The translations under genes were made by a program, and so were the position numbers. 64,000 nt of DNA. Source: Methanosuratincolales archaeon. Lineage in GTDB: Archaea > Thermoproteota > Methanomethylicia > Methanomethylicales > Methanomethylicaceae. The DNA is taken from positions 10,174 through 74,173 of the forward strand of contig JACIVQ010000001.1 in NCBI GenBank assembly GCA_014361445.1, in the 5' to 3' direction. Of this stretch, positions 4,594-42,782 are shown in pieces. Every line of letters starts with the position of its first letter. The stretch's first letter is position 1. Below the pieces are notes generated by a model that had not been told where the DNA came from, did not search any database, and saw only the letters and a program-made list of their open reading frames with translations.

Positions 4594-4653
4594 AGATCAC
4601 GCCGCCAACTTCACCATTAATTTATATTTTAATGTTTTCATATCATTCATAGG

Positions 4654-5403
4654 TTGATACGTGTGTCAGAAGGGGAGGTTTTACGGATTCTGAGGGGTTG
4701 TGGGCTCACCGAGACCGAGGCGAAGGTTTATCTGGCACTGATAAAAGGCAGAGGGGACGCCAAGGAGATCAGCGCGAGGAGCAAGGTCCCATACAGCAAG
4801 ATACACACGGTTTTGACCAGCCTACAGGAGAAGTCGCTGATTACGGCATCGAGCGACAGACCCACCATCTACTCTGCCAAGAGCGTGGGCGAGGGGCTCG
4901 GCGAGTACAAGATCCAGATGCAGAAGGAGATAGAGGAGGCTTTCAAAAGGGCGGAGCAGGTACTGACGGCAATACAGGGAGAGCCCGAGAAGTCAGATAT
5001 CTGGATAATAAAGAGCGGTAATGAGATCTTGAGCAAGGCTTATCAGATGCTCAGGACGGCTAGGAGGGGCGTGAAGCTTGCGTTGCCTGTATTACCAGAG
5101 TGGCTGAGTGATGAGATCCTGCCCGTTCTGACGAGGCTGAGGGCTCAGCAGGTTGAAGTGAACATGCTGGTGACAAAGAACGTCAGTAAAGAAACGATCC
5201 AAAAACTATCTGGACTTTCCACAGTGAGGAGCAGAGACAAGATGTTTGGAGGAGGGATTATTGTAGACGATGCAGAGGTCATGTTGTTCATAGGCGGTAG
5301 CGAGGGTGTGATGGGCACTGCCATTTGGGCAAGCCACCCGGGCTTGGTTCAGCTCGCCAGTACCTACTTTGACTTTTTGTGGGCAGGCTCAGAAGCACCA
5401 TGA
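4654..5403 (+). CDS. TrmB-family transcriptional regulator
   Basis: N-terminal winged HTH (L..CGLTETEAKVYLALIKGRGDAKEIS..SKVPYSKIHTVLTSLQEKSLI) with a C-terminal effector-type domain. ~250 aa. Confidence 0.6.
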   Translation: MIRVSEGEVLRILRGCGLTETEAKVYLALIKGRGDAKEISARSKVPYSKIHTVLTSLQEKSLITASSDRPTIYSAKSVGEGLGEYKIQMQKEIEEAFKRAEQVLTAIQGEPEKSDIWIIKSGNEILSKAYQMLRTARRGVKLALPVLPEWLSDEILPVLTRLRAQQVEVNMLVTKNVSKETIQKLSGLSTVRSRDKMFGGGIIVDDAEVMLFIGGSEGVMGTAIWASHPGLVQLASTYFDFLWAGSEAP

Positions 5404-6131
5404 GTCTTCATTGGTACCAAGCCACCCCGCTCTATGGTGAAGTAGTGCCAGATTGTGTCGTGTATGGCGCCCTTCATCTTCCTCACGCGGAGCTGTCTCG
5501 CCAATAACCCCTGCTGGGCAAGCAACGGATCGAATCGGAAGTCTATTATCCCATCCACAAGGTAATCGATCATGGCAGCAAACTCGTCTATTGATTTCAA
5601 GCCTATGTGGTAAGTTGCGAAGATCGGGATGCCCATCATCTTGCAGAACTCAGCCCTCCAGTTCTTGACGGTCTCAAGGGTGGATGTGGGCTCGCTGATG
5701 GTGAAGAACTCTGTCAGGGAGTCAATAAATATGGTACCCTTCCCCTCCATGCCCTCTGCTGTGGAGAGGAGCGTGCCCGTGAGCTCGTGGTGGTCCTTTG
5801 GGTTCTGGACTATGCGAATGCCCTCTGTGGGCTTGGGCTGGGTCCTTGCCCTGAAAGAGAAGCAGTCCACTATCCGGAGCACATTATTTGCCAAAGCCCC
5901 GCGGACCTCGTAGCCGAGGCGTAAGAAGTTGTTTACTATCGATGAGGGGCTATCGTCGAATGTCACGAAGATGCACGGTTCGCCGAGCCTTATCCTGGTC
6001 CCTGCGGCCTGGGCGATTGCGACGGACTTGCCAGTCCCTCCTTCCCCGAAGAGGAGTACAAAGCTGTTCCTCGGCATGCCGTCTGGTAGGAGGGAATCTA
6101 TCATGGGGATTCCTAAAGTGATGTATGACAT
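5364..6131 (-). CDS. KaiC/RadB-like RecA-superfamily ATPase
   Basis: Walker A LFGEGGTGKS. Single KaiC-like domain, 255 aa. Confidence 0.6.
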   Translation of the reverse strand: MSYITLGIPMIDSLLPDGMPRNSFVLLFGEGGTGKSVAIAQAAGTRIRLGEPCIFVTFDDSPSSIVNNFLRLGYEVRGALANNVLRIVDCFSFRARTQPKPTEGIRIVQNPKDHHELTGTLLSTAEGMEGKGTIFIDSLTEFFTISEPTSTLETVKNWRAEFCKMMGIPIFATYHIGLKSIDEFAAMIDYLVDGIIDFRFDPLLAQQGLLARQLRVRKMKGAIHDTIWHYFTIERGGLVPMKTHGASEPAHKKSK

Positions 6132-6315
6132 ATGGCTTCAACGCTTTAATTTTGTGGCTTCTTGCTTAAAAACAAGACCTTTTTTTGGCTCTGTTTTATA
6201 AGAATAATAATTCAACTAATGATTAAAATTAATGATTTTGTAAAAATGACAATTTAAAAGAAAAATATAATAATCCCCATTTTGAACTCTATCGGTATTA
6301 ATTGGAGGGTTTTCG

Positions 6316-7290
6316 TTGGCTAAAAATGGAAAGAGGATTTTGGTTGCCCTAGGTGGCAACGCGATAAAGCAGGCACATGAAAAAGGAACAGCTGAAGAGC
6401 AGTTCAGGAACGTGTACACCACAGCCAAGCACTTGGTGAATATGATAGAACATCTAGGGAAGGACGACAGGCTCATAATAACACACGGCAACGGTCCCCA
6501 GGCGGGGAACTTGGCGCTTCAGCAAGACATAGCTAAAGACGTGGTGCCGCCTCAGCCTCTGGACGTCGTGGGCGCAATGACACAGGGGCAGATAGGCTAC
6601 ATGCTCCAGCAGTGTTTAGAGAATATAATGATGGAGAAGGGCATGAAGGTCCCAGTAGTCGCCATAGTCAATCAGGTGCTGGTGGATAAAAACGACCCCG
6701 AGTTCTTTGGTGAGAACGCCTCGAAGCCGGTGGGCAACTTCCTGACAGAGGAAGAGGCCATGAAGATGAAGGCGGAGAAAGGCTGGATCGTGAAGAAGGT
6801 GAAGCCCAATGCGCCAAAGCCATGGAGGAGGGTCGTCCCGTCCCCAGACCCGATCGCAAATGTTGAGGCAGATGTCATAAAGATACTCGTGGACTCTGGA
6901 GTGGTCGTTATTGCATCAGGAGGTGGAGGGATCCCAGTCATAAAGGAGGACGGGAGGCTGGTGGGCGTCGAGGCTGTCATCGACAAGGACCTGGCAGGGG
7001 AGAGGCTAGCAGAGGTCGTGGAGGCAGACATATTCCTGATATTGACTGATGTGGAGAAGGCAAAGCTGAACTTTGGGAAGCCCGACGAGAAGGAGATCGA
7101 CAGGATGACGGTCTCGGAGGCGAAGAAATACCTCGCAGAAGGGCACTTCCTCCCTGGCAGCATGGGACCTAAGGTTAAGGCCTGCATAAGGTTCCTGGAG
7201 TGGGGAGGAAAAGAGGCGATAATAACATCGCTGGACAAGGCTGTAGAAGCGCTTGAAGGGAGAACCGGCACTCATATTGTGAAGGATTAG
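6316..7290 (+). CDS. arcC: carbamate kinase
   Basis: KRILVALGGNA...HGNGPQ(A)G... and a C-terminal ASGGGGIPV motif across the full length of the carbamate kinase family. 324 aa. TTG start with an AT-rich promoter just upstream. Confidence 0.85.
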   Translation: MAKNGKRILVALGGNAIKQAHEKGTAEEQFRNVYTTAKHLVNMIEHLGKDDRLIITHGNGPQAGNLALQQDIAKDVVPPQPLDVVGAMTQGQIGYMLQQCLENIMMEKGMKVPVVAIVNQVLVDKNDPEFFGENASKPVGNFLTEEEAMKMKAEKGWIVKKVKPNAPKPWRRVVPSPDPIANVEADVIKILVDSGVVVIASGGGGIPVIKEDGRLVGVEAVIDKDLAGERLAEVVEADIFLILTDVEKAKLNFGKPDEKEIDRMTVSEAKKYLAEGHFLPGSMGPKVKACIRFLEWGGKEAIITSLDKAVEALEGRTGTHIVKD

Positions 7291-8763: not shown

Positions 8764-9075
8764 TTATGGAGTAGGTACAACGGACCTTCCTGAGAACCTT
8801 ATAGCCTCTGCGGCGTTGTCTGGCTTAATCTCGAATGCAAAAGGCCGCTCGCACCACCAGTACTTCTGAGCTTTATCCTCCTTGTAGTATGGGCATATCG
8901 GGCAGCACTTTGCCTCAAGCTTCAGAAGGTACCAGATTGGTGGAGCCTCGTCTGAGGGATAGCTCTTCTGCGGCCAAGGTTTCTCCTTTGAGACGTAGCC
9001 TGGGCACTTCGGGCTTACCCTGGGCTCTTGGTTCAGGATGTTCTTATATTCTGGACATAATATGCAGCATGGCAT
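8764..9075 (-). CDS. hypothetical Cys-rich small protein (103 aa, ~9 Cys) at the 3' end of the pyrimidine-catabolism operon
   Basis: ORF immediately downstream of the YgeW-like gene on the same strand. CC..C, CPGY and CCPICPY clusters. No family recognised. Confidence 0.35.
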   Translation of the reverse strand: MPCCILCPEYKNILNQEPRVSPKCPGYVSKEKPWPQKSYPSDEAPPIWYLLKLEAKCCPICPYYKEDKAQKYWWCERPFAFEIKPDNAAEAIRFSGRSVVPTP

Positions 9076-9088
9076 TGGATTTACCCCC

Positions 9089-10216
9089 TTACCTCCTTCC
9101 TCCCATTGTCAGTGCCATAATGCCCTTCTGTCCGTGTAGCCTGTTCTCAGCCTCGTCCACCGAGACAGACCATCTGTTGGAGAAGATCACTTCGGGTTCC
9201 ACTTCATAGCCAACATCGGCAGGTAGGCAGTGCATCCAGATGCTGTTCTTGCGAGTCCTGTCCATAAGCTCGGGCGTAGTCTTCCAAGCAGCGAGGTTGT
9301 GGGTCCTCTTGTACTCCTCGTGGAGCTTCTCGTCGTAGCCCCCAGCCTTCAGGAGCTCCCAGCTGCACCATCCCTTCGGATAGACCACGAGAGCGTCCTC
9401 GAATGCCTCTTCCATGCTGTGGACTATCTCGAACTTCGTGCCGTACTGGTCGGCGAGCTTTTTAGTATACTCCTCGACAGCAGGGTCCAGGTTGAATTTC
9501 TCTGGGTATGCTAGAGTGACGTCCATCTGGAGGAGTCTTGTGAAGAAGATTATGTTTGTCTGGGGGACTGCCACCGGCTTCCATGCGCCAGGGCTGTTGG
9601 CATAGCACATAACAAACTTCTTTCCTCTTAGGCTCCTGGCATTATATTTCTCTATCACAGTCATGATATCCGCGACGCCTTGACATGGGTGCCACATATC
9701 GCACTCCATATTAATCACAGGTACGGTTGAGGCCTTGGCGTACTCCCTCATTGTGAGGTTGCCCTCTCCGTAGTACTGACCCTTCACGTATCTCCTTATG
9801 GCTATACCGTCGCACATCCTGCTCATGATGGCGGCGGTCTCATAGATGGTTTCACCATGGGTTATCTGTAGCTTTCCGGGGTCCAAATCGTATGCTACGC
9901 CTCCAAGCTGAGTAATCCCTGTAATAAAGGACGACCTAGTTCTCGTGGAAGGGTTGAAGAACAACGTAAATAGCGACTTCCCTTTGCAGATGTTGTCGTG
10001 TCGCTGTCCCATTGCATATTGCCTTTTTAGGTCGAAGGAGACATCCAATACTGTCCAAAGCTCTTCGTCACTCCATTCTATCTCGGGAGCTATCCAGTGT
10101 TTCCCATGGAGTTCTGTTTTTACCAAATATCTCCCTCCGAGTTTTTGCTGGAATTGGGTATAAATTTTTGGTTTAATAATGCTTTCGCGAGGGTTAGAGG
10201 AAACTATCACAAACAA
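9089..10216 (-). CDS. YgeW-family (knotted) carbamoyltransferase; putative catabolic transcarbamylase
   Basis: 375 aa. STRTR carbamoyl-phosphate motif, and ITHGETIYETAAIMSRMCDGIAIR compared with YgeW IAHGETVRETANMISFCADAIGIR. Also MDVTLAYPE, SMEEAF.DA.VVYPKGW and HCLPA. HPCQ replaces HPTQ. The length and the extra segments are as in E. coli YgeW. Confidence 0.8.
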   Translation of the reverse strand: MFVIVSSNPRESIIKPKIYTQFQQKLGGRYLVKTELHGKHWIAPEIEWSDEELWTVLDVSFDLKRQYAMGQRHDNICKGKSLFTLFFNPSTRTRSSFITGITQLGGVAYDLDPGKLQITHGETIYETAAIMSRMCDGIAIRRYVKGQYYGEGNLTMREYAKASTVPVINMECDMWHPCQGVADIMTVIEKYNARSLRGKKFVMCYANSPGAWKPVAVPQTNIIFFTRLLQMDVTLAYPEKFNLDPAVEEYTKKLADQYGTKFEIVHSMEEAFEDALVVYPKGWCSWELLKAGGYDEKLHEEYKRTHNLAAWKTTPELMDRTRKNSIWMHCLPADVGYEVEPEVIFSNRWSVSVDEAENRLHGQKGIMALTMGGRR

Positions 10217-10224
10217 AAAAGAGG

Positions 10225-11604
10225 TTAGTTTAAGGGCTGGTACTTTCCTCTTGGGACGAACTTGCCCGTGCCCTTCTTGCCGACAAACTCCCTGTTGTAT
10301 ACGACGGGTTTGCCCCTCACAAAGACATGAATAGGCATACCCTTGACTTTGACCCCCTCGTATATGGAGTAGTCGATCCTCGAGTGGAGGTTCTCCTGGC
10401 TCAGCTCCATCTCGAAGTCTGGGTCGAAGACGACTATGTCTGCATCGCTGCCCACGTTCAGCGTGCCCTTCCTTGGATATAAACCGAAGAGCTTTGCCGG
10501 GTTGTAAGAGACCACCTCTACGAGCTTATTCAAGGATATCCTGTTCTTGGAAACGCCTTCGCTGTAGAGTATAGGGATCATGGTCTCTGTGCCAGGAACA
10601 CCGTTAGGAACCTTGGTGAAGTTGTCTTTCCCAAGGTCCTTCTGGGCGTCTGTGAATGTGCAGTGATCGGTTGCGACTGTGCTCAGCGTGCCATTTGCGA
10701 GCCCCTCCCAGAGGGCTTCGTTGTCTGCTTTACCCCTCAAAGGAGGCGACATTATATACCGCCTCCCCTTCGGCGATAGGTATTTCTCGTCGGTGAGTAT
10801 GAGGTAGTGGGGGCACGTCTCCCCATACAGGTTCGAATAGAGCTTCTTCATCCTTGAGAGCTCGGCTACGCCCTCCTTTGTAGACATGTGCACGATGTAA
10901 AGGTTCCCCCCGGCGGCTGCTGCCAGCGCCAGACCCCTGTGGACAGCCTCGCCCTCAACGAAGTTCGGTCTGCTCTTTGCGTGGTACTCCGCGGATAGCT
11001 TTCCCAAGGAGACATATCGCTCTATTAGGAGTTCCAGAACAGAGTTGTTCTCGGCATGTAGCTGGACCAAGAACCCGAGTCTTCGGCTCTCTTCCAACAT
11101 CCTGTATATCCTGCCATCGTCGCTCATCAGACCCTCCTTTCTGTATGGCATGAAGAGCTTGAAGCTTGAGACCCCAGCCTCGAGGACCTTGGGGATCTCT
11201 TTGACCAGGTCTTCCGTTAAGTTTGTCACAGCCACGTGGATCCCATAATCCACAACCACTTTGGGGTCAGCCTTGCCCCTCCAGAGGGATATGGTCTCCA
11301 AGAATGTTTTGTCCTTCGGCTGTATCGCGAAGTCCAGAATTGTGGTAACACCACCAAAAGCTGCTGCAATTGTGCCGTACTCAAAGTCGTCGACTGTAGT
11401 GGTTCCCATGAAAGGCATTTCCATGTGGGTGTGGGCGTCTATGCCCCCAGGCATAACATACTTGCCTGAGGCGTCCACGACCTCCTGCGCCTTTTCAGTG
11501 ATGTTTGAGGCGATTGCCACTATCTTGCCGTCTTTCACTCCGATGTCTGCTTTGAAGGTGTCCTTTGGGGTTACAATGGTTCCGTTCTTTATTAATAAGT
11601 CCAT
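10225..11604 (-). CDS. dht: dihydropyrimidinase / D-hydantoinase
   Basis: 459 aa cyclic amidohydrolase. N-terminal LLIKNGTIV...GKI.AI....DA.G..V.PGGID.HTH metal-binding motif and full-length similarity to the hydantoinase family. Confidence 0.9.
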   Translation of the reverse strand: MDLLIKNGTIVTPKDTFKADIGVKDGKIVAIASNITEKAQEVVDASGKYVMPGGIDAHTHMEMPFMGTTTVDDFEYGTIAAAFGGVTTILDFAIQPKDKTFLETISLWRGKADPKVVVDYGIHVAVTNLTEDLVKEIPKVLEAGVSSFKLFMPYRKEGLMSDDGRIYRMLEESRRLGFLVQLHAENNSVLELLIERYVSLGKLSAEYHAKSRPNFVEGEAVHRGLALAAAAGGNLYIVHMSTKEGVAELSRMKKLYSNLYGETCPHYLILTDEKYLSPKGRRYIMSPPLRGKADNEALWEGLANGTLSTVATDHCTFTDAQKDLGKDNFTKVPNGVPGTETMIPILYSEGVSKNRISLNKLVEVVSYNPAKLFGLYPRKGTLNVGSDADIVVFDPDFEMELSQENLHSRIDYSIYEGVKVKGMPIHVFVRGKPVVYNREFVGKKGTGKFVPRGKYQPLN

Positions 11605-11653: not shown

Positions 11654-12862
11654 CTATTTTGTGACTTTCTTCCATGTTATGCATCCAGGCACAGGGCATA
11701 GATGCGTACAGAGGGAGCATGCGTCGCACTTCTCCTCGTCGACCTCGGCGGCTTTTCCTTGCTCGAACTTTATCGCCTGGTACCCGCCATCGCGACATGC
11801 CACGTAGCAGAGACCGCACTTTATGCAAAGGTCCTTGTTGATGCTGGCAACGACCGTGTAGTCCTTGTTGAGCTTCGACCAAGCGGTCAGTTTGGGGAGG
11901 CTCTTCCCGATGATCTCGTTAACCGAGGAGAAGCCTTTGTCAGCAAGGTAGTTGGTGAGACCGTCAACGAAGTCGGAAATTATCCGGTAGCCCCTCCACA
12001 TCACCGCGGTGCAGACTTGGACGCTGCCTGCACCCACGAGGAGGTATTCAACAGCATCCTTCCAAGTAGTTATTCCACCTATCCCAGAGACGGGGATGTT
12101 AGTTGCCTGAGCTATCTGGGCGACGCACCTTAGTCCAATCGGCTTGACGCCTGGTCCCGATAGACCGCCGAAGGTGCTCATCCCGTCGACGGTGGGTATC
12201 GGCTCAAATGTATCTATGTTGATGCCTATTAGACCGAGTACAGTGTTTATGGCAGAGATGGCATCGGCTCCGGCTTCCTCTGCAGCCTTGGCGGTGTAGG
12301 CGATGTCTGTGACGTTCGGTGTTAGTTTCACCATTACAGGGACCGAGGATCCGCGCTTTGCTGCCTTTGTGAGCTTTTGGATGAGCTCGGTCCTTTGCCC
12401 GATGAAGGCGCCCATCCCCCGTTCAGGCATCCCGTGTGGGCAGCCGAAGTTCAGCTCAATCATATCCACGCCCGCCTCGCTCACGACCCTGGCAAGCTCC
12501 TCCCAGTCCTCCTCCTTGCACTCGGCCATGATGCTCCCTATGAGCGCCTTCTCGGGGAACTTTTTCTTGATCTCTTTGATCTCCTTCACCCATGTGCCGA
12601 CGGGCCTCTTTGAGACCTCTTCGATGTTTTCGAAGAGTATCATCTGCTTCGTCTCGAAGCCCATCACGCCAAACCTGTTCTTTAGATCGTAGACAGGGGT
12701 CTTGTCTGGCTTTATGGTCTTGGTGACAGCTCCAGCCCAACCAGCCTCGAATGCCCTCATTATCATCTCGCCAGTGCATGTAGGTGGCGCCGATGAGAGC
12801 ATGTATGGGTTCTCCAGCTCAAGGTTGCAGAATTTTACGGATATATCTGGTTTTGAAACCAT
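11654..12862 (-). CDS. preA: dihydropyrimidine dehydrogenase subunit PreA-like (DHODH-fold with C-terminal 2x[4Fe-4S] ferredoxin domain)
   Basis: Collinear with E. coli PreA ([23 protein letters not shown]...). C-terminal CIKCGLCYVACRDGG and CDACSLCTHLCPV ferredoxin motifs. 402 aa. Confidence 0.85.
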   Translation of the reverse strand: MVSKPDISVKFCNLELENPYMLSSAPPTCTGEMIMRAFEAGWAGAVTKTIKPDKTPVYDLKNRFGVMGFETKQMILFENIEEVSKRPVGTWVKEIKEIKKKFPEKALIGSIMAECKEEDWEELARVVSEAGVDMIELNFGCPHGMPERGMGAFIGQRTELIQKLTKAAKRGSSVPVMVKLTPNVTDIAYTAKAAEEAGADAISAINTVLGLIGINIDTFEPIPTVDGMSTFGGLSGPGVKPIGLRCVAQIAQATNIPVSGIGGITTWKDAVEYLLVGAGSVQVCTAVMWRGYRIISDFVDGLTNYLADKGFSSVNEIIGKSLPKLTAWSKLNKDYTVVASINKDLCIKCGLCYVACRDGGYQAIKFEQGKAAEVDEEKCDACSLCTHLCPVPGCITWKKVTK

Positions 12863-12883: not shown

Positions 12884-14245
12884 CTATTTCTTTGAACTCT
12901 TACCTCCGGAGAGGAACTTGTCAATGGCAGCTGCAGCCTTCTTACCCTCAGCCACAGCCTCAACGACGGTCTCGCCGCCGTTTACGGCGTCGCCGCCCGC
13001 AAATATGCCCTTTATGGATGTGGAGAAGTTCTCGTCCACAACGATCAGCCCTTTCTCTGTCTTGACGCCATAGGACTTTAGAAGGTCTTCGTCCGGCTTC
13101 TGCCCTATCGCAACTATAACCGAGTCCACATCCAGGCGGAACTCCGAGCCCTTTATGGACCTTACGCCCCTCCTCCCAGAGGAGTCTGGCTCGGTGAGCT
13201 CCATCTTAACGCACTCAATCGCTTTGACGCTCTTGTCTCCTATTATCCGGACCGGGGCTGTGAGTAAGAGGAACTCCACGCCCTCCTCCCTCGCTTGGTT
13301 CCTGCCGTAGGGTACTGCGGGCATCTCGGCGAAGGATCTCCTGTAGACGATGTAGACCCTTTCGGCACCGAGCCTCACAGAGGCACAGGCTGCGTCTATG
13401 GCGGTGTCTCCGCCGCCTATCACGGCGACCCGCTTTCCCTTGAGGTCGGGCGCCTTCCCCTCTCCCATCAACCATTTTGCCACAGATTGTAGGAATTCCT
13501 GTGCGGGGTAAACACCATTTAGCTCCTCGCCGGGTATCCCGAGCTTCTGGGACTTTGTTGCGCCCACGCCAACGAAGACAGCGTCATACTCCTTAAGAAG
13601 TGGCTTTAGGTCGGTAATTTTCCTGTTTGTGACGAAATTAATGCCATACTCCTTTATGAGATCGATCTCAGACTCGGGAACAGACCAGGGTGCCTTCCAA
13701 GGAAGGATGCCGTAGAGCAGAAGGCCTCCGGGTCTTGGGTTTGCATCGAAGACCGTGACGCTGTAGCCCATTCGGGCGAGCTCGTATGCTGCCGAGAGAC
13801 CGGCGGGACCAGCACCCACAACTGCAACCTTCTTGTCCTTGGATCGTGATTTCGGGAATTTCACGAGACCCTTGAGCTTCTCTTTCTCGTAGGCGAACCT
13901 CTGGAGCATAGATATAGCCACAGGCTCCTCGTTCAAGTTCCTCCTTACGCACTTGGACTCGCAGAGGCGCTCAACTGGACAGACGTAGCCGCATTCCCCT
14001 CCTAAGATGTTGCTCTCGCGTATGACTTTGGCAGCCCCATAGAAGTTTCCAGTTTTTATGCGGTATATGAACTCGGGGATGTTGATCCCAGCTGGGCAAG
14101 CCGAGATGCACGGAGCGTCGAAGCACATAAGGCACCTTGAGGCTTCGTACACAGCAAGCCTGTCGTCGAGGTTTGAGACGTATGGAGCGAAGCCAGAGAT
14201 CCTCTCATGCGGAGGAATAGTTTTAGTATGGACTCTACCTGACAT
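12884..14245 (-). CDS. preT: dihydropyrimidine dehydrogenase subunit PreT-like (GltD-like FAD/NAD(P) oxidoreductase with N-terminal Fe-S domain)
   Basis: EASRCLMCFDAPCISACPAG...ECGYVCP..LCESKC N-terminus, VAVVGAGPAGLSAAYELARMGYSVTVFD dinucleotide fold and C-terminal GGDTA. Its size matches PreT rather than the large YgfK/GltB proteins. Confidence 0.8.
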   Translation of the reverse strand: MSGRVHTKTIPPHERISGFAPYVSNLDDRLAVYEASRCLMCFDAPCISACPAGINIPEFIYRIKTGNFYGAAKVIRESNILGGECGYVCPVERLCESKCVRRNLNEEPVAISMLQRFAYEKEKLKGLVKFPKSRSKDKKVAVVGAGPAGLSAAYELARMGYSVTVFDANPRPGGLLLYGILPWKAPWSVPESEIDLIKEYGINFVTNRKITDLKPLLKEYDAVFVGVGATKSQKLGIPGEELNGVYPAQEFLQSVAKWLMGEGKAPDLKGKRVAVIGGGDTAIDAACASVRLGAERVYIVYRRSFAEMPAVPYGRNQAREEGVEFLLLTAPVRIIGDKSVKAIECVKMELTEPDSSGRRGVRSIKGSEFRLDVDSVIVAIGQKPDEDLLKSYGVKTEKGLIVVDENFSTSIKGIFAGGDAVNGGETVVEAVAEGKKAAAAIDKFLSGGKSSKK

Positions 14246-14311: not shown

Positions 14312-15001
14312 ATGAATTGTCCAAAGAGAATGGTCGTTAAGGGAATCGTGTTCGATCTTGACGGTACATTAGTAGACTCTATAGATTCTATTTGGAAGGC
14401 TTCTGAATATGTACTAAAGATTAACGGTTACCGCGGGATAGACCGCCAGGATGTGGTAGAGGCCATGGGCAAGACCATATTTGACTTATTTTTGAGGGTC
14501 GAGCCAGGTCTGAGTCATAAGGAGCAGCAGAAGCTATTCGAGGACTACAGGAGAGTCTATATGGATTTCATAGCGCATACGAGACTGATCCCCAGGGTTA
14601 AGGAAACCTTGGCAGTTTTGAGGGGGAGAAGGTTAAAGATGGCGGTCGTCACAACAAAGAGCAAGCAGAATGCTGAGAAGATCCTTTCGTTTTTTGGCAT
14701 AAGGGGCTTCTTTGATGTGGTTATAGGCTTCGAGGATGTGAAGGAGCATAAGCCTTCCATAGAGCCAATAATAAGGGCGGCAGAAGGGCTTAACCTCCAA
14801 GCCTCAGAGTTGGTTGTTGTCGGCGACACTCACATAGACGTCAAAGCTGGGAGGGAGGCAGGCGCATTAACAGTTGCGGTTAAAACTGGCGTGACGCCCC
14901 TGGAGAGGATTACGGCGGAGAGACCAGACTTTTTGATCGATGATGTCTCCAGTCTACCTGAGGTGTTGGAGCAGAATGGGCTCATCAGTATCGGGGACTG
15001 A
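14312..15001 (+). CDS. HAD-superfamily hydrolase (phosphatase, PGP/PpaX-like)
   Basis: DLDGTL motif I, S/T motif II, K and a DD motif near the C-terminus. 229 aa. Confidence 0.75.
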   Translation: MNCPKRMVVKGIVFDLDGTLVDSIDSIWKASEYVLKINGYRGIDRQDVVEAMGKTIFDLFLRVEPGLSHKEQQKLFEDYRRVYMDFIAHTRLIPRVKETLAVLRGRRLKMAVVTTKSKQNAEKILSFFGIRGFFDVVIGFEDVKEHKPSIEPIIRAAEGLNLQASELVVVGDTHIDVKAGREAGALTVAVKTGVTPLERITAERPDFLIDDVSSLPEVLEQNGLISIGD

Positions 15002-16280
15002 TGTTCTTTAGGATCTCGTCGAACACCTCAACAGCGGTGTCAATATGCTCACGGGTCAGAACTAATGGTGGCTCTATTCTTATGACGTTCCCCTCCAAAC
15101 CTCCGAGGCCCACAAGTATCTTTTTCTTCCACGCCTCTTGCAAGAATCTTACGGCTTCCTCCCTTGCTGGCACCTTTGTGGATCTCTCTTTAACGAGCTC
15201 GACCCCTAAGAAGAGACCGACGCCTCTCACGTCTCCTACAATCTCGTATCTCTCCTGCAGCGATTCCAGCCTGCGCTTGAAGTATGCGCCGTTCTCTTTT
15301 ACCTTATCCATGAGCCCACTTGTCAGCTCTTCCAGAACGGCCTCTGCGGCAGCGCATGCGAGAGCATTCCCGCCCAGCGTGGAGTAGTGCTCCCCTGGTC
15401 TGAGGGCAGAGTCGAGCTCTTCTCTGTAGATGGTCACACCGAGTGGAAGACCGTTTGCTATAGCCTTCGATGTGGTCATCACGTCTGGTACAACCCCATA
15501 GTGCTCAATCCCCCAAAGCTTGCCGGTCCGACCATTCCCAGACTGGACTTCGTCCGCAATGAAAAGTATGGAGTACCTGTCCAGCACCCGCTTAACCTCC
15601 TTAAAATAATCAGAGGGGGGTATGATCATGCCACCATTAGCTAGCATGGGTTCCGCTAAAAGTGCAGAGATAGAGTCCCCTCCAACCTCGCATTTAATTA
15701 CGTCTTCCATGTACTTTACGCAGGCGAATCCGCATTCAGGACAGCTTTTGTGGCCGAGCGGGCACCTGTAGCAATAAGGATCAGGCGCAAACACCACTGG
15801 CGCGAATGGACCAAGCCCAACCTTCCAGTTTGACTGCCCCAACGCACTCATGGCGTAAAACGTCCTGCCGTGAAAAGACCGGTGGAGTGCCATTATGTAG
15901 GGTCTTTTCTTGACGCGCTTAACGAGGGAGATTGCGGTCTCGTTTGCCTCTGATCCGCTATTCGTGAAGAAGGTCTTGGTGAGTGCGCCCCCGGGGGAGA
16001 GTTCGGAGAGCCTCTTTGCAAGTTTTGCCGTGTACTCCAAGTAGTATAGTGAAGAAGTGTGGAACAACTTTTGCATCTGAGCTTGAACTGCCTTGATTAC
16101 TCTTTGGTTCGACCATCCCACATTAACTATGGAGACGCCAGCGTATAGGTCAATATAGGCCTCCCCCTCGATAGAGTAAACGATGTCGTCAACAGCCCTG
16201 TCCGGGACAAAGGGGTAGTAATGCCTGTACATGCGCGAGAGGTATCGGTCGGAGAGGTCGATTACATCTTTAGGGTTCAT
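14985..16280 (-). CDS. class-III (omega) aminotransferase, PLP-dependent; candidate beta-alanine/4-aminobutyrate aminotransferase
   Basis: 431 aa. GSEANE..., the DEVQSG.GRTGK PLP-lysine region and TTSKAIANG. The beta-alanine role is inferred from the neighbouring pyrimidine-catabolism genes only. Confidence 0.8.
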   Translation of the reverse strand: MNPKDVIDLSDRYLSRMYRHYYPFVPDRAVDDIVYSIEGEAYIDLYAGVSIVNVGWSNQRVIKAVQAQMQKLFHTSSLYYLEYTAKLAKRLSELSPGGALTKTFFTNSGSEANETAISLVKRVKKRPYIMALHRSFHGRTFYAMSALGQSNWKVGLGPFAPVVFAPDPYCYRCPLGHKSCPECGFACVKYMEDVIKCEVGGDSISALLAEPMLANGGMIIPPSDYFKEVKRVLDRYSILFIADEVQSGNGRTGKLWGIEHYGVVPDVMTTSKAIANGLPLGVTIYREELDSALRPGEHYSTLGGNALACAAAEAVLEELTSGLMDKVKENGAYFKRRLESLQERYEIVGDVRGVGLFLGVELVKERSTKVPAREEAVRFLQEAWKKKILVGLGGLEGNVIRIEPPLVLTREHIDTAVEVFDEILKNISPRY

Positions 16281-16336: not shown

Positions 16337-16681
16337 TCATTTGGGAGGCGCATTGACGGCGATGAGCCAGAGAGGGGTCTTTCCGATGTTCTTTATGGAG
16401 TGTGGAACGTTTGGTGGGAAGACCAGCGCGTTTCCTGTCTTAACCTTGTACTCCTCGTTTCCTATGGTGACCAGCGCCCTCCCCTTCAATATGTAGTAAG
16501 CCTGTTCGAAGGGATGGGTGTGGGGGTCTGCCCTCCCGCCCACCTCAAACTCTGACCTGAACATGGAGAGGTTTTTGCACCCCACGTTAGCTTCCTCCAG
16601 CAGGACTCTAGTGATACATCCGTAGTGTAGTGGGGGCACGAAGGTCCGTGCTTCTTTAGGATCTATAACACGCTTCGTCAT
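16337..16681 (-). CDS. cupin-domain protein
   Basis: 114 aa. The H.H...E...H cupin metal motif (PHTHPFEQAYYILKG...PPNVPHS). Directly upstream of, and co-oriented with, the aminotransferase. Confidence 0.7.
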   Translation of the reverse strand: MTKRVIDPKEARTFVPPLHYGCITRVLLEEANVGCKNLSMFRSEFEVGGRADPHTHPFEQAYYILKGRALVTIGNEEYKVKTGNALVFPPNVPHSIKNIGKTPLWLIAVNAPPK

Positions 16682-20726: not shown

Positions 20727-21359
20727 TTGAGCAAGGTTCAACTTGAGGCACTCAAGGAGGCTCTGATCGAGCAGAATCAAAAGAGGGCGAAAGATCTCAC
20801 AGAGGAATTTTTGCGAGCAGGTGTGCCGCCAAAGGATATAATTGATGTGATATCTGACGGGCTAAAGGTAATTGGAGACTTATTTGAGAGGGGAGAGCTC
20901 TTCCTGCCAGAGGTCATGAGGGCAGCAAACGCCGCCAAGGCCTCATTGAGCGTCGTATTGCCAATGATGGTGAAGGAGAAGGCGGGAGAGGGGCGGGGAG
21001 TGATCGCGATAGGCTCGCTAGGACCGCACGACATAGGGAAGACCATTGTATCCTCTACGCTGATCGCAGATGGTTTCAAGGTGTTGGACATGGGCATAAA
21101 CGTGACGCCGAATGTTGTGGAGGACTTTTTGAGAGATAATGAGGTGGATATACTCGCCCTCTCAATCCTCCTCACCTCTGACATAGATAAATGTGCTAAC
21201 GTGATAGAGAGGGCAAGGAAGGTTAAGAGCGGAATTAAGGTGATGGTTGGGGGCGCAGCCATGAGCCCGGAGACGGCAAGAAAGATAAAGGCAGACGCAT
21301 ACGGTAGAGACGCAAACGAGGCGGTTAAGATAGCAAGGGAACTAACCGGGAGGAGGTAG
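20727..21359 (+). CDS. corrinoid (cobalamin-binding) protein, methyltransferase-associated type
   Basis: N-terminal helical B12-binding-2 domain plus a Rossmann B12-binding domain with GSLGPHDIGKTIV (DxHxxG-like) and MVGGAA. 210 aa. Confidence 0.75.
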   Translation: MSKVQLEALKEALIEQNQKRAKDLTEEFLRAGVPPKDIIDVISDGLKVIGDLFERGELFLPEVMRAANAAKASLSVVLPMMVKEKAGEGRGVIAIGSLGPHDIGKTIVSSTLIADGFKVLDMGINVTPNVVEDFLRDNEVDILALSILLTSDIDKCANVIERARKVKSGIKVMVGGAAMSPETARKIKADAYGRDANEAVKIARELTGRR

Positions 21360-21364
21360 AGAGA

Positions 21365-36589: not shown

Positions 36590-36671
36590 GCCCTATATAA
36601 TTCTCTCTCTACCTTAATAAGTTTAAGCGAAATGATTTATATAAACAAAAAAGGGGAAAAAAATAAGGTTG

Positions 36672-37943
36672 TTATAGGTAGCGGTTAAAGGGTTTTTCCT
36701 TTCCATCCCTTACAATTTTTATTTTTGCTGGTTCAGTTTTTATTATCACCCTTCCAGATTTGACTACGAGTAGCCTAGGCGCCATGGTCCTTATCGCTTC
36801 AAGTTCACTGAAAGCATCCATCACCACTAGATCCGCATCTTTCCCTTCTTCCACCCCGTACCTCTCGGATATACCTAAGGCTCTGGCCGGATTGTATGTT
36901 ATCAGGTTCAAACTATCTAAGAGTTCCCTGTAACCTGTCAATTGCCCAACATGTACGCCCATAAATAGAGCATGAAGCATATCGCCATTTCCCAGAGGAT
37001 ACCATGGGTCCATTATGCAGTCGTGCCCTAATGCGACATTGATGCCGTGTTGCAATAGCTCCTTAATTCGGGTTAAACCCCTCCTTTTCGGATAAGTATC
37101 AAACCTCCCTTGGAGGTGAATGTTTATCAGCGGATTTGCTACGATCGTTATATCTGCTTTTTTTAACAAACCAAAGAGCTTGAAGGCATATGCATTATTG
37201 TAGGAGTGCATGGCTGTGGTGTGCCCTGCGGTCACTTTCCCTTGATATCCCTCTCGAATAGTTTGGGCGGCGACGACCTCAAGAAACCTTGACTGCTCAT
37301 CGTCCGTTTCGTCAACATGACCATCGACTTTCTTTCCGTATTTTTTGGCAAGCTTGAATGCCAGCTCAACTGATCTCACGCCGTCTTCTCTTGTATATTC
37401 TATATGGGGTATTATTCCTACATTGTCAGCGCCTAACTCTAAAGCCCTTTCTAACAATTCTTGGTTGCCTGGATCTGTGAGGATGCCGTCCTGTGGGAAT
37501 GCCGTGACCTCTAGATCGATTATATCAGCACACTCTTTCTTAAGTTCTAATAATCCCTTGAGGGTTGAGAGGGTTGGCTCCGTCACGTCTGCATGAGTCC
37601 TAACCCTTGTAGTCCCATTGGAGGCTATAAGCTCAAGAGCCCTCATGGCTCTAGCCTTCATCTCGTCAATATTCAGTTTTTTCTTATACTCCCCCCAGAT
37701 GGCTATGCCTTCCAGAAGCGTTCCACTCTCATTGTATCTTGGAGTACCAAGTGTTAGTACAGAATCGAGATGTATGTGCATGTCTGTGAATGTTGGAAGA
37801 ACCAACCTACCCCCAGCATCAAACTCTTCATTCCCCCTTTCTTTGATCTCTTTTTTAATTGTTGTAATTTTGCCTTCGCTGACGCCTATGTCGACGGTTC
37901 CGTCCTTCCCCATCAGTTTTGCTCTCCTAATAATAAGGTCCAT
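36672..37943 (-). CDS. codA: cytosine deaminase (amidohydrolase)
   Basis: Near-collinear with E. coli CodA: HIHLD, RTHVDV, GHVDE.DDEQSRF, HTTAMHSYN, VANPLINIHLQGRFDTYPKRRG and GHDCIMDPWYPLG. Confidence 0.9.
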   Translation of the reverse strand: MDLIIRRAKLMGKDGTVDIGVSEGKITTIKKEIKERGNEEFDAGGRLVLPTFTDMHIHLDSVLTLGTPRYNESGTLLEGIAIWGEYKKKLNIDEMKARAMRALELIASNGTTRVRTHADVTEPTLSTLKGLLELKKECADIIDLEVTAFPQDGILTDPGNQELLERALELGADNVGIIPHIEYTREDGVRSVELAFKLAKKYGKKVDGHVDETDDEQSRFLEVVAAQTIREGYQGKVTAGHTTAMHSYNNAYAFKLFGLLKKADITIVANPLINIHLQGRFDTYPKRRGLTRIKELLQHGINVALGHDCIMDPWYPLGNGDMLHALFMGVHVGQLTGYRELLDSLNLITYNPARALGISERYGVEEGKDADLVVMDAFSELEAIRTMAPRLLVVKSGRVIIKTEPAKIKIVRDGKEKPFNRYL

Positions 37944-38042: not shown

Positions 38043-39479
38043 GTGCTTTGTATGAGTAGTTCAGGGATAAGCCCAGAACTTTTCCCTACCAAGCCTGAAC
38101 AGAGGATCGTCGGAACTGTCGGTTATACTCTTATGATACTCTCCATGACTATCACAACCTCCATATTCTTCTTGGGCTGGATCTCTCAAGTGCTCGGCCT
38201 CTCATTAGCCCAGACCATGGTTGCCGCTCTAATTGGCAATGGCGTTGTCGCGGCGGTCATGTATCTAAATGGTTATGTAGGCGTTAAAGAAGGCATCCCG
38301 TTTCCAATTCAACTGAGAACCGCCTTCGGAACGAAGGGATCAATCCTTCCCATGGTAGTGCGAATGATAGTCTCCCTCTTCTGGTATGGTATTGATGGTT
38401 TCATAGCAGCATGGGCAATGACTGAAATGGCTCTTATTGTGGCAGGTTGGCCAGCAGATAGAATAATAAGCGAGGGTCTGGCCTACACCCCCATAACCTT
38501 TGTCTTGTATTTGATAGCCGTAGCCGCCATAGGTACTGGGAAAATTAAGTCGATAAAATGGATCGATTCCATTGCCGGTCCTCTCCTGTTTATCTTCTTC
38601 GCCTGGTTTGTTATCTACATGACTGGGATACCCGAGTTCTCAGGGAAGGTTATACCCATATGGGAGGGCGGCGCCCCATGGTTCGGGTCAGAGTTCTTTT
38701 GGGCTACGGCTATTCAGACGGCATGGTGGGGTACTATCGCCCTAAACGTCTCAGACATCTGCCGCTACAACAAATCAGTAAAATCTTTGCCTGTCGGCCA
38801 CGTGGTAGGACTCATAATACCCCAAATAGTCGGCTCTGCAATAGGCTTCACTGCCACATACCTGGCTGGCGGGAACCTCAGCCCAATAGATATAATCGCA
38901 AAATATTCGCCGATGCCTGCTTTGGGGGCGCTCGGTTTATTCTTTGCCTTCTTGGCTACATCCACCACCAACCTTACAGGCGACATACCTGCAACTACAA
39001 ATGCAGTTATAAGAGTCTTCAGGCTTAGCTGGAACAAAGCGCTCATAATAGCTACAATCATCGCATTCTTCATAGGTCCATGGTGGTATGTCCAAAATTC
39101 CATAGGCATGGCGTACCAACTTCTCAACTTCAACTGGTACTACAGTATGTTCTTGGGTCCGATAGCCGGGGTGATGGTGGTTGACTACTGGGTTGTTAGG
39201 AAAAAGAGAATAATTGTTGAGGAATTATACAAGGAACAAGGTATCTACTATTATAGAGGCGGAGTTCTCTGGGCTGGCGTTGGCTCATTCATACTTGGAA
39301 TTGTAGGTGAATATATTGCAAGCCTCTTCCAAGGTGGTTTCTACTACGCCTTTGGGATTCCATTACCTGGACTAGAGCTTGCATGGTACTACGGTTTCAT
39401 CATATCAGGCGTAATTTACTACATATGGGCTACTGTGAATAAAAGTGAAGTTCTGGTGGAGAACAAGCTCCACCAATAA
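38043..39479 (+). CDS. NCS1-family nucleobase:cation symporter (cytosine/uracil/hydantoin permease-like)
   Basis: 478 aa, ~12 predicted TM helices, with size and topology typical of NCS1. Divergently arranged with codA. Confidence 0.65.
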   Translation: MLCMSSSGISPELFPTKPEQRIVGTVGYTLMILSMTITTSIFFLGWISQVLGLSLAQTMVAALIGNGVVAAVMYLNGYVGVKEGIPFPIQLRTAFGTKGSILPMVVRMIVSLFWYGIDGFIAAWAMTEMALIVAGWPADRIISEGLAYTPITFVLYLIAVAAIGTGKIKSIKWIDSIAGPLLFIFFAWFVIYMTGIPEFSGKVIPIWEGGAPWFGSEFFWATAIQTAWWGTIALNVSDICRYNKSVKSLPVGHVVGLIIPQIVGSAIGFTATYLAGGNLSPIDIIAKYSPMPALGALGLFFAFLATSTTNLTGDIPATTNAVIRVFRLSWNKALIIATIIAFFIGPWWYVQNSIGMAYQLLNFNWYYSMFLGPIAGVMVVDYWVVRKKRIIVEELYKEQGIYYYRGGVLWAGVGSFILGIVGEYIASLFQGGFYYAFGIPLPGLELAWYYGFIISGVIYYIWATVNKSEVLVENKLHQ

Positions 39480-42768: not shown

Positions 42769-42782
42769 CCTCCCTGTCCCGA

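Follow-up and report, generated by a model that had tools for sequence, protein, structure and literature searches.

An archaeal YgeW-related transcarbamylase encoded in a conserved PreT-PreA-dihydropyrimidinase operon: a predicted beta-alanine transcarbamylase

Introduction

Which substrate does an archaeal transcarbamylase use when its gene stands next to that of a dihydropyrimidinase? An earlier note on this DNA, made from the sequence alone, had placed the transcarbamylase (TCase) in the YgeW family. Its description of the protein as archaeal and as a neighbour of a dihydropyrimidinase (DHPase) was right, and its suggestion to anchor the substrate assignment on this neighbour is upheld and proved to be the key to it. 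YgeW (YTCase; E. coli b2870; PDB 3q98, 2yfk) is a knotted transcarbamylase with a catabolic role in the anaerobic breakdown of urate (2,8-dioxopurine pathway). The note called members of the family outside the enterobacterial ygeW cluster poorly described; the role of YgeW itself has meanwhile been addressed by two studies from 2025, which show that it cleaves 2,3-diureidopropanoate when urate is degraded anaerobically (PMC12507026; bioRxiv 10.1101/2025.04.24.650524). YgeW and YqeA yield ATP from 2,3-diureidopropanoate. One study places the cleavage at the 3- (beta-) ureido group (bioRxiv 10.1101/2025.04.24.650524), the other at the 2- (alpha-) ureido group (PMC12507026). For urate degradation in the gut, the choice between the two groups is an open question (PMC12990295).

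Results

The transcarbamylase gene starts at the second TTG codon

The window, i.e., the whole 64-kb stretch of DNA analysed, contains the TCase gene on the minus strand:

9089..10126, minus strand: transcarbamylase gene, 345 aa, TTG start after GGAGGGAG
10127..10216, minus strand: first 30 codons of the mechanical ORF, covering the ribosome-binding site and the spacer between the DHPase and TCase genes

The mechanical ORF (9089..10216, minus strand, 375 codons) also begins with TTG. The ribosome-binding site GGAGGGAG lies directly 5' of the second TTG at 10126, the NCBI protein P0001 is identical to the 345-residue product (100% identity, 100% coverage), and all homologues begin at the equivalent M-VKT... 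in the alignment. We therefore assign the gene to 9089-10126; the first 30 codons of the longer frame are almost certainly non-coding, judging from these sequence features. The earlier note had thus recognized a real TCase gene on the correct strand but with the wrong start, giving 375 instead of 345 residues. For the same reason, its claim that the protein is 60-70 residues longer than OTCases fails: TCase has 345 residues, compared with 334 in E. coli ArgI, 315 in the P. furiosus ornithine carbamoyltransferase (OTC), and 396 in YgeW.

Pfam matches to OTCace_N (PF02729, 3.4e-36) and OTCace (PF00185, 9.6e-27) identify the product, at the level of sequence, as a real transcarbamylase of the ATCase/OTCase-fold superfamily. 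NCBI and JGI name it ornithine carbamoyltransferase. The AF2 model of TCase (pLDDT 96.2) matched OTC, AOTCase, and YgeW structures in the PDB alike (Foldseek TMq 0.81-0.86; 0.85 for P. furiosus OTC), and we rejected the fold comparison as a non-discriminating test of class. Scans of the 64-kb window for tRNAs and with Rfam gave no matches. A bacterial promoter/terminator scan, a method not applicable to archaea, returned counts at shuffle level.

Motifs and models separate TCase from ornithine carbamoyltransferases

The motifs used to compare TCase with its relatives are the following:

9935..9949, minus strand: STRTR carbamoyl-phosphate motif, residues 60-64
9680..9691, minus strand: HPCQ motif, residues 146-149
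9560..9595, minus strand: proline-rich loop SPGAWKPVAVPQ, residues 178-189, signature of knotted transcarbamylases (PMC4581275)
9221..9232, minus strand: HCLP motif, residues 299-302, followed by D304-V305-G306

STRTR and HCLP are retained, as had been noted. HPCQ is also present, but the argument built on it, a departure from the HPTQ of OTC and ATC enzymes, is inverted: 36 of the 40 OTCases sampled carry HPCQ and the remaining four HPTQ, whereas HPTQ occurs in all seven true YgeW sequences. Being the commonest OTCase variant, HPCQ is therefore not diagnostic. With D304-V305-G306 after HCLP, TCase, like YgeW (D334-I335-S336), lacks the arginine of the OTC-type HCLPxxRG.

Could TCase nevertheless be an ornithine carbamoyltransferase, working either in biosynthesis or, with carbamate kinase (CK) and an ornithine aminotransferase, in a catabolic route of the arginine-deiminase kind? 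The database names point that way, as do the best NCBIfam scores of TCase, which are to OTC models. TCase also resembles P. furiosus OTC in its overall fold (TMq 0.85) and over its C-terminal 40 residues, and the nearest solved homologue of the aminotransferase encoded nearby is an archaeal omega-aminotransferase. Against this, TCase scores below every OTC cut-off (209 bits vs. 306 and 206 vs. 281). The earlier note had set an OTC substrate-loop signature against its own reading; we looked for it and found that DxxxSMG, present in 38 of 40 OTCases, occurs in none of the 17 members of the archaeal clade examined, with SMG lacking in TCase itself. TCase has the proline-rich loop absent from OTCases and stands apart from them in the tree, and its surroundings contain no arginine genes, unlike true OTC loci, which adjoin argD. 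We regard an OTC function as highly improbable.

Two other classes fared similarly. The N-acetyl/N-succinyl-ornithine carbamoyltransferase model gave 199.6 vs. a cut-off of 288, of the extended, Trp-bearing 80s loop of this class, the insertion seen in the SLRTR subgroup is not present, and no arg genes were found near TCase, unlike the arginine-biosynthesis context of AOTCase. The putrescine carbamoyltransferase model TIGR04384 gave 176 vs. 500.

TCase resembles YgeW in its substrate-binding domain but appears to lie outside the YgeW family

A proline-rich loop and an extended 120s loop serve as sequence proxies for knotted transcarbamylases (PMC4581275). TCase has both and would accordingly group with AOTCase, SOTCase, and YTCase. 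Its loop SPGAWKPVAVPQ contains three prolines (YgeW counterpart, SPSYGKPLSVPQ) and is accompanied by a YPK(S/G)W motif including the conserved lysine. The 120s loop, counted from R111 to N139, spans 28 residues, compared with 20 in ArgI and 36 in YgeW. YgeW has an extended 240s loop with two additional helices. In TCase, this region, from K251 to H299, measures 48 residues (59 in YgeW, 41 in ArgI), and the AF2 model places helices 256-261 and 267-275 within it.

Collinearity with E. coli YgeW, as claimed in the earlier note, extends over residues 5-306 at 39% identity, but the N-terminal extension and the C-terminal helix of YgeW are missing, and over its last 40 residues TCase aligns with OTCases instead (DEAENRLHxQK). 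The assignment to the YgeW family stands only in part. YgeW is the top PDB sequence match, and the proline-rich loop, YPK(S/G)W, and the lack of DxxxSMG agree with it. However, both YgeW equivalog models failed (NF005538, 200.5 bits vs. a cut-off of 453; TIGR03316, 191.8 vs. 500), with alignments stopping at residue 305, whereas a true YgeW used as control (locus L136) scored 657 and 616. The terminal helices are lacking, YgeX, YgeY, SsnA, and XdhD are not among the neighbours, and TCase differs at D124, Q160, S200, Y201, S206, and S271 of YgeW. Thus, the substrate-binding domain of TCase appears nearer to that of YgeW than to that of OTC, and by the tests applied, namely models, terminal helices, and neighbours, TCase falls outside the YgeW family.

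In the tree, TCase and its archaeal relatives form a clade of Methanomethylicia with 100% bootstrap support (one cluster at 50% identity), separate from OTCases and within an unresolved supergroup that includes the true YgeW proteins along with a bacterial "short YgeW-like" family. The latter provides the nearest sequences outside the archaeal clade, with 44-55% identity. The archaeal-clade loci came from a metagenome scan, and bacterial genome-contig matches served as controls. A profile search of genome contigs with the family alignment returned bacterial relatives, YgeW, and OTCs, with no archaeal relatives among the matches listed.

Eight residues have been proposed to form the second-substrate site of YgeW: Q98, D124, Q160, S200, K203, K270, D334, and E344 (PMC4581275). 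Five of the eight are retained in TCase (Q87, K183, K251, D304, and E308), and three differ (Y113, E141, and G180). G180, A181, and A186 stand for YgeW S200, Y201, and S206. The archaeal clade deviates from true YgeW, and equally from the bacterial urate-type family, by S200G, Y201A, S206A, S271G, Q160E, and D124Y, of which the first four put small or apolar residues in place of polar ones, in the proline-rich loop and where the 240s loop begins. This loss of polar residues fits a substrate without a second ureido group.

The surrounding genes probably encode a reductive pyrimidine pathway

The genes around TCase and two further genes of the window are:

6316..7290, plus strand: carbamate kinase, TIGR00746 (arcC) 411 bits vs. 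358, 1.8 kb from TCase
8764..9075, minus strand: Cys-rich ORF, 103 aa, seven invariant Cys (CCxxC ... CCxxCxY ... WWC)
10225..11604, minus strand: dihydropyrimidinase / D-hydantoinase, TIGR02033 540 bits vs. a cut-off of 393
11654..12862, minus strand: PreA-type dihydropyrimidine dehydrogenase subunit (DHO_dh plus two [4Fe-4S]), NF006183 543 bits vs. 335
12884..14245, minus strand: PreT-type subunit, glutamate synthase small subunit-like, by profile and sequence matches
14985..16280, minus strand: class-III (omega-amine) aminotransferase, candidate beta-alanine aminotransferase, conserved beside the cluster
16337..16681, minus strand: Cupin_2 protein, 114 aa, conserved at the head of the cluster
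36672..37943, minus strand: cytosine deaminase, NF006685 526 bits vs. a cut-off of 483
38043..39479, plus strand: nucleobase permease of the NCS1 family, in divergent orientation to the gene for cytosine deaminase

The operon runs PreT-PreA-DHPase-TCase-small ORF with gaps of 21, 49, 98, and 13 nt, so that the Cys-rich ORF starts 13 nt past the TCase stop codon, and an oligo-T tract after this ORF ends the operon. The Cys-rich protein is an obligate neighbour of the archaeal TCase clade and belongs to a family of only 12 clusters among 5.8 billion proteins. Pfam and NCBIfam searches with it gave no match, and its AF2 model was unusable (pLDDT 39.5).

The models for dihydropyrimidine dehydrogenase and DHPase of the reductive pyrimidine pathway were thus passed. 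The best PDB matches of the DHPase are 1k1d (477 bits) and 3sfw, its nearest relatives being classical D-hydantoinases/dihydropyrimidinases. The window PreA shares 43% identity (337 bits) with E. coli PreA, compared with 31% (169 bits) with a UacX-like protein of a urate cluster. A pass of the NCBIfam PreA equivalog was rejected as sufficient evidence for a pyrimidine substrate: in the control locus L136, a genuine YgeW/YgeY/Xdh cluster, a PreA-like protein likewise exceeds the cut-off (438 vs. 335), and PreTA alone therefore does not prove such a substrate. The nearest solved relative of the aminotransferase is a P. horikoshii omega-aminotransferase, itself deposited only as a hypothetical 4-aminobutyrate aminotransferase, and a role in beta-alanine removal is therefore only a candidate one. 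The cytosine deaminase may represent a feeder step from cytosine to uracil.

The operon is conserved, and urate-pathway genes are absent from its surroundings

More than 17 independent contigs of the archaeal clade, with 74-98% identity, keep the synteny; the MAGs GCA_015660995.1 and GCA_054474235.1 are examples of genomes with the operon. The DHPase gene lies directly upstream of TCase wherever the sequence extends that far, and PreT-PreA upstream in 11-12 loci. About 11 loci have carbamate kinase within about 1.5-4.5 kb, and the genes for the aminotransferase and the cupin are also kept. The conserved PreT-PreA-dihydropyrimidinase-TCase operon, followed by the small Cys-rich ORF, was found only in the archaeal clade. 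Departures from this gene order are L008 (75% identity), with DHPase-TCase-CK but PreTA not adjacent, and L097-99 (68% clade), short contigs on which DHPase is not adjacent. Members of a sister clade adjoin other reductases (AFOR, F420/luciferase-like) and nucleoside transporters, and the bacterial relatives reside in urate (2,8-dioxopurine) clusters with YgeY, SsnA, XdhD, and carbamate kinase.

The position of these bacterial relatives raises the question of whether TCase is isofunctional with YgeW, cleaving 2,3-diureidopropanoate in an archaeal urate pathway. Its nearest family (44-55% identity) occupies the YgeW position in urate clusters with YgeY, SsnA, XdhD, YgeX, and CK; E. coli YgeW is the best PDB sequence match; and Q87, K183, K251, D304, and E308 are shared with the putative YgeW site. 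On the other hand, YgeY, YgeX, SsnA, and XdhD were not found near the gene in any of the more than 17 archaeal loci, and tblastn detected no YgeX, YgeY, or XdhD anywhere in the 64-kb window. A urate route needs two amidohydrolases and two ureido-cleaving enzymes, but one of each is present, which matches a single-ring substrate. Together with the systematic alteration of positions common to YgeW and the bacterial family, and the failure of both equivalog models, this makes a YgeW-like function clearly improbable in our view.

No nitrilase-type or M20-type beta-ureidopropionase was found among the annotated ORFs of the window or in related loci, leaving the hydrolytic step of the reductive pyrimidine pathway without a candidate there.

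Discussion

From the gene identities, the order and conservation of the operon, the distinctness of the clade, and the absence of urate-pathway genes, we infer the substrate of TCase, the direction of its reaction, and its coupling to ATP. We consider it probable, on the basis of this context, that TCase phosphorolyses N-carbamoyl-beta-alanine to beta-alanine and carbamoyl phosphate, from which carbamate kinase would gain ATP. TCase is accordingly predicted to be an N-carbamoyl-beta-alanine:phosphate carbamoyltransferase (beta-alanine transcarbamylase), in effect replacing beta-ureidopropionase. In this pathway, uracil (optionally derived from cytosine) or thymine would be reduced by PreT/PreA, and the dihydropyrimidinase would open the ring to N-carbamoyl-beta-alanine or N-carbamoyl-beta-aminoisobutyrate. 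TCase and phosphate would cleave this ureido product into beta-alanine and carbamoyl phosphate, which carbamate kinase would convert with ADP to ATP, CO2, and NH3, thereby pulling the unfavourable phosphorolysis forward. Beta-alanine would finally be removed by the class-III aminotransferase. YgeW together with YqeA offers a precedent, as the cleavage at the 3- (beta-) ureido group assigned by one study (bioRxiv 10.1101/2025.04.24.650524) is the same chemistry as cleavage of N-carbamoyl-beta-alanine.

Several observations count against this reading: D-hydantoinases are promiscuous, PMC12507026 assigns YgeW cleavage to the alpha group, L008 has no adjacent PreTA, and L097-99 have no adjacent DHPase on their short contigs. 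DHPase and TCase might instead act on other reduced N-heterocycles or on hydantoins, with TCase phosphorolysing a different N-carbamoyl acid, e.g., an N-carbamoyl-D-alpha-amino acid from 5-substituted hydantoins or the product of a PreTA-reduced heterocycle; the ATP-yielding logic would be unchanged and only the substrate different. The best solved relatives of the DHPase are indeed broad-specificity D-hydantoinases, PreA-like reductases passing the PreA model are found in urate clusters, the sister clade sits beside AFOR, F420/luciferase-like reductases, and nucleoside transporters, and L008 again lacks adjacent PreTA. However, the canonical gene set for reductive pyrimidine breakdown is complete with PreT/PreA, DHPase, and an omega-aminotransferase, PreA of the window is markedly nearer to E. 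coli PreA than to UacX, and a cytosine deaminase and a nucleobase permease are encoded within the window. We therefore judge such an alternative substrate to be rather unlikely and retain N-carbamoyl-beta-alanine as the predicted one.

Phosphorolysis of N-carbamoyl-beta-alanine to gain ATP was proposed in 2015; our full-text searches found no later report, and none has been demonstrated in the literature searched. We see about an even chance that the archaeal clade is the beta-alanine transcarbamylase postulated then, serving an ATP-yielding pyrimidine fermentation in methanogen-related archaea, maybe with the Cys-rich protein as a small subunit. The operon provides a concrete, expressible candidate for this enzyme. 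If the prediction is true, the operon would represent an energy-conserving variant of a textbook pathway, with an enzyme activity that is new. Methanomethylicia could then gain ATP from nucleobases, with pyrimidine breakdown as a substrate-level-phosphorylating fermentation, and a systematic mis-annotation as ornithine or N-acetylornithine carbamoyltransferase would be corrected. A true prediction would also be relevant to the choice between the two ureido groups in the YgeW reaction, because the pyrimidine-derived substrate has only a beta-ureido group, and would support a YgeW lineage with beta-ureido regiochemistry as its ancestral activity.

Comparison with known systems

Like YgeW, with which it shares 39% identity over residues 5-306, TCase has the proline-rich loop as well as the YPK(S/G)W lysine, has lost the arginine after HCLP, and combines a short OTC-like 80s loop carrying a Gln with a 120s loop longer than in OTC and, in the AF2 model, helices in the 240s region. 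Both have a carbamate kinase partner, and for TCase a catabolic, ATP-yielding cleavage of the ureido product of a hydantoinase-family enzyme is likewise predicted. Unlike YgeW, TCase is 51 residues shorter (13 fewer at the N-terminus), lacks the extra N- and C-terminal helices, and ends in an OTC-like C-terminal helix (322-342) with no extension. Its 120s and 240s loops are shorter by eight and 11 residues, HPCQ replaces HPTQ, and D124Y, Q160E, S200G, Y201A, S206A, and S271G distinguish the two. YgeW neighbours YgeX/YgeY/SsnA/XdhD/YgfK, whereas TCase neighbours PreT/PreA/DHPase/aminotransferase; of the YgeW-type neighbourhood, only the hydantoinase-family gene and CK are present in the window.

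The bacterial "short YgeW-like" transcarbamylases (325-345 aa) form an unnamed family annotated as OTC or AOTC in Clostridia, Chloroflexota, Actinomycetota, and others, e.g., Peptostreptococcaceae AGR-M142 (L001). TCase shares their length class, OTC-like C-terminus, and proline-rich loop architecture, and a carbamate kinase gene usually follows theirs. Unlike the archaeal clade, they keep the polar equivalents of Q160, S200, Y201, S206, and S271 and adjoin YgeY, SsnA, XdhD, or YgeX; the archaeal clade is a separate group with 100% bootstrap support, a pyrimidine-type context, and the Cys-rich partner ORF.

Catabolic OTCase and PTCase with carbamate kinase, in the arginine and agmatine deiminase pathways, convert a ureido compound and phosphate into an amine and carbamoyl phosphate and then ATP, as predicted here, but they are unknotted, have the SMG-type 240s loop, and differ in substrates and gene contexts. 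Beta-ureidopropionase (PydC, beta-alanine synthase) holds the same pathway position as TCase, with the same predicted substrate and beta-alanine as product. PydC is unrelated in fold and chemistry (nitrilase or M20 type) and wastes the energy of the carbamoyl bond by hydrolysis, whereas phosphorolysis by TCase would conserve it as carbamoyl phosphate and then as ATP.

Gene boundaries and class of the transcarbamylase

The minus-strand ORF 9089..10216 was confirmed as 375 codons initiated at TTG, but the real start of the transcarbamylase (TCase) gene is the second TTG, at 10126, with GGAGGGAG directly upstream. The resulting 345-residue protein shares the N-terminus M-VKT... with all its homologues in the alignment and is identical to a deposited entry (P0001, 100% identity and coverage) named [quoted passage not shown]. 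Pfam matched both transcarbamylase domains (3.4e-36 and 9.6e-27), the motifs STRTR (residues 60-64), HPCQ (146-149) and HCLP (299-302) are present, and AlphaFold2, given 88 homologues, modelled the protein with very high confidence (pLDDT 96.2, pTM 0.94). The gene and its motifs are therefore real.

The earlier note had assigned the protein to the YgeW family, considering it 60-70 residues longer than OTCases and its HPCQ a departure from them. It is only 11-30 residues longer, and 51 shorter than YgeW; HPCQ occurs in 36 of 40 collected OTCases, including P. furiosus OTC, whereas all seven true YgeW sequences carry HPTQ. No NCBIfam transcarbamylase model gives TCase a score that reaches its curated cut-off.

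NCBIfam scores of TCase
OTC model: 209 bits, cut-off 306
YgeW models: 200 and 192 bits, cut-offs 453 and 500
AOTCase model: 200 bits, cut-off 288
PTCase model: 176 bits, cut-off 500

The top PDB sequence matches are the E. coli and E. faecalis YgeW proteins (5.5e-49), limited to residues 5-306, followed by P. furiosus OTC (2.5e-45), which aligns at full length. The collinearity claimed with E. coli YgeW thus holds for residues 5-306, but the extra terminal helices of YgeW are absent and the C-terminal 40 residues are OTC-like (DEAENRLHxQK). The class criteria of Shi et al. 2015 (PMC4581275) gave a mixed outcome. TCase contains the proline-rich loop SPGAWKPVAVPQ, a 120s loop of 28 residues (20 in the shorter ArgI loop, 36 in YgeW) and K251, the conserved lysine opening the 240s loop, equivalent to YgeW K270; like YgeW, it has no Arg after HCLP. 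The OTC signature DxxxSMG, found in 38 of 40 OTCs, is absent from TCase and from all 17 clade members. Both YgeW-family membership and identity as an OTCase were rejected, and the earlier note was partly right in observation and in interpretation.

A neighbour-joining tree (213 sequences, 327 columns, 100 bootstraps) places TCase in a fully supported (100%) clade of 17 Methanomethylicia-type sequences, to which a small sister clade attaches at 61%. True YgeW and a large "short YgeW-like" family of bacteria join both clades in a supergroup that is poorly resolved and leaves out OTCases and ATCases. Among the 1.84 billion proteins of a library of 50%-identity representatives, the entire archaeal clade is a single cluster (P0006, 86%), and the nearest representative beyond it is just 48% identical.

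Genomic context

Genomic context provides the decisive evidence on the role of TCase, which is the fourth gene of a minus-strand operon and, as the earlier note had recognized, adjoins a dihydropyrimidinase (DHPase).

Features in the window (bits versus NCBIfam cut-off)
12884-14245 (-): PreT-like
11654-12862 (-): PreA (NF006183, 543 versus 335)
10225-11604 (-): DHPase (TIGR02033, 540 versus 393)
9089-10126 (-): TCase
8764-9075 (-): Cys-rich ORF, 103 aa, followed by an oligo-T tract
6316-7290: carbamate kinase (CK; arcC, 411 versus 358), 1.8 kb from TCase
14985-16280: class-III aminotransferase, just upstream of the operon
16337-16681 (-): cupin (Cupin_2), 114 aa, just upstream of the operon
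within 36086-39479: cytosine deaminase (526 versus 483), adjoining an NCS1 nucleobase permease

By tblastn, the 64-kb window contains no YgeX, YgeY or XdhD homologues. The stretch 36086-39479, 22 kb from the pyrimidine operon, holds an Lrp/AsnC-type regulator, the cytosine deaminase and the divergent NCS1 permease, likely a module for cytosine uptake and deamination. At 20727-23118 and 3130-4593, a corrinoid protein and Meth_synt_2-like and MtrH-like methyltransferases are encoded one after another, and an HMPTM-type radical SAM enzyme (methanopterin biosynthesis) is also present; the two finds fit a methyl-reducing Methanomethylicia genome. The regions 41986-52420 and 57409-63924 carry ordinary housekeeping genes: a shikimate (aromatic amino acid) operon with a split transketolase and a DAHP synthase, then PEP synthase and an acyl-CoA carboxylase (carboxyltransferase and biotin carboxylase).

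Related loci, obtained by look-ups of relatives and a metagenome scan, were screened by tblastn. The reference proteins were drawn from the window, from a clostridial urate cluster and, for E. coli, from the ygeW and preTA loci. Across over 17 independent contigs of the archaeal clade (74-98% identity), DHPase lies directly upstream of TCase wherever sequence exists there, PreT-PreA precedes DHPase in 11-12 loci, CK lies within a few kb in about 11, and the aminotransferase and cupin are kept; YgeY, YgeX, SsnA and XdhD are absent from all of them. Cupin_2 stands at the cluster head, upstream of the aminotransferase or, in L008 (8098-8442), directly upstream of DHPase. Bacterial relatives (39-55% identity), where flanks exist, mostly reside alongside YgeY, SsnA, XdhD, YgeX and CK; these neighbourhoods are urate (2,8-dioxopurine) clusters with their transcarbamylase in the position of YgeW, e.g., L001. 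Control loci were as expected, namely true YgeW loci and OTC loci adjoining argD.

Sister-clade and Thermoplasmatota relatives (L010, 5358-11208; L012, 8194-13780; L100, 5301-13140) neighbour aldehyde:ferredoxin oxidoreductase, luciferase-like (F420-type) oxidoreductases, an arginase-family protein and a Bmp nucleoside ABC transporter, and look like additional candidate N-heterocycle catabolic clusters.

The Cys-rich ORF has seven invariant cysteines (CCxxC ... CCxxCxY ... WWC) and directly follows TCase in all archaeal-clade loci, as well as in a 68%-identity subclade and one sister-clade member. Since DHPase or PreTA is not adjacent in the latter cases, the ORF tracks TCase and not the reductase.

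Further copies of the Cys-rich ORF (72-103 aa including the window copy)
L005: 11053-11364
L008: 11075-11383
L097: 3505-3723
L100: 10524-10754

Only 12 clusters emerged when 5.8 billion proteins were searched with its profile, Pfam and NCBIfam gave zero matches, and AlphaFold2 produced no usable model. We speculate, by analogy, that the protein might be a PyrI-like metal-binding partner of TCase.

Pyrimidine or urate

In L136, a true YgeW/YgeY/Xdh cluster, a two-subunit PreT/PreA-like reductase (4115-6608) resides inside a genuine urate cluster. Its PreA-like protein clears the NCBIfam PreA cut-off (438 versus 335), so the model alone cannot separate uracil from 2,8-dioxopurine reductases; it probably takes in the latter too, and a dihydropyrimidine dehydrogenase annotation of L136-type reductases may be wrong there. 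The window PreA scores higher (543 versus 438 bits), and its identity is 43% with E. coli PreA but 31% with the clostridial UacX-like protein, which itself falls short of the PreA model cut-off. For the window DHPase, the nearest relatives are classical D-hydantoinases/dihydropyrimidinases (1k1d at 477 bits), which are promiscuous enzymes, and the aminotransferase, a candidate for beta-alanine, is of the omega-amine type (closest PDB entry 7vno). The PreA score and identity, the kinship of DHPase and the aminotransferase type still favour pyrimidines.

Proposed pathway and comparison with known systems

The archaeal operon comprises exactly the reductive pyrimidine gene set, plus transcarbamylase and CK but minus the hydrolytic beta-ureidopropionase, which did not appear among the annotated ORFs of the 64-kb window or at the related loci; the most economical reading is a phosphorolytic route. 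PreTA would reduce uracil or thymine to the dihydropyrimidine, DHPase would open the ring to N-carbamoyl-beta-alanine (or N-carbamoyl-beta-aminoisobutyrate), TCase with phosphate would release beta-alanine and carbamoyl phosphate, CK would convert the latter to ATP, CO2 and NH3, and the omega-aminotransferase would remove beta-alanine. The general logic, phosphorolysis of a DHPase product followed by carbamate kinase, is highly probable; the substrate, the reaction direction and the ATP coupling are inferences.

N-carbamoyl-beta-alanine is 2,3-diureidopropanoate minus the 2-ureido group. In the alignment, several positions that are conserved and polar in the bacterial urate-type family as well as in true YgeW carry small or apolar residues in archaeal-clade members: YgeW S200, Y201, S206 and S271 correspond to G180, A181, A186 and G252, with further changes from Q160 to E141 and D124 to Y113. 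The loss of polar residues is in line with a substrate lacking the 2-ureido group, and we lean towards N-carbamoyl-beta-alanine as the predicted specific substrate.

YgeW itself phosphorolyses 2,3-diureidopropanoate and yields ATP together with the carbamate kinase YqeA (PMC12507026; bioRxiv 10.1101/2025.04.24.650524), cutting the 3-ureido group according to the latter report and the 2-ureido group according to the former. A PyrB-like second transcarbamylase precedes the short YgeW-like TCase in Chloroflexota and Actinomycetota urate-type clusters (L029, L030, L032, L035, L036, L038, L040 and L043, around 9000-11200 in each), where CK mostly follows and the YgeY amidase is absent. Loci bearing YgeY have no PyrB-like gene (L012, L013, L019, L020, L023, L028, L031, L033, L034, L037, L039, L120, L124-L126, L128 and L129), L042 being the only one with both. 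This pattern suggests a variant that strips 2,3-diureidopropanoate of its two ureido groups by phosphorolysis and so forms two carbamoyl phosphates.

According to the 2015 family review, a beta-alanine transcarbamylase acting in catabolism "remains to be proven". Full-text literature searches turned up no report of such an enzyme, and no paper tying Methanomethylicia to this pathway. We therefore class TCase with the catabolic transcarbamylases related to YgeW, as a clade whose substrate and place in metabolism are predicted to be new. Most probably the gene specifies an unproven enzyme activity by which archaeal pyrimidine breakdown would yield ATP.
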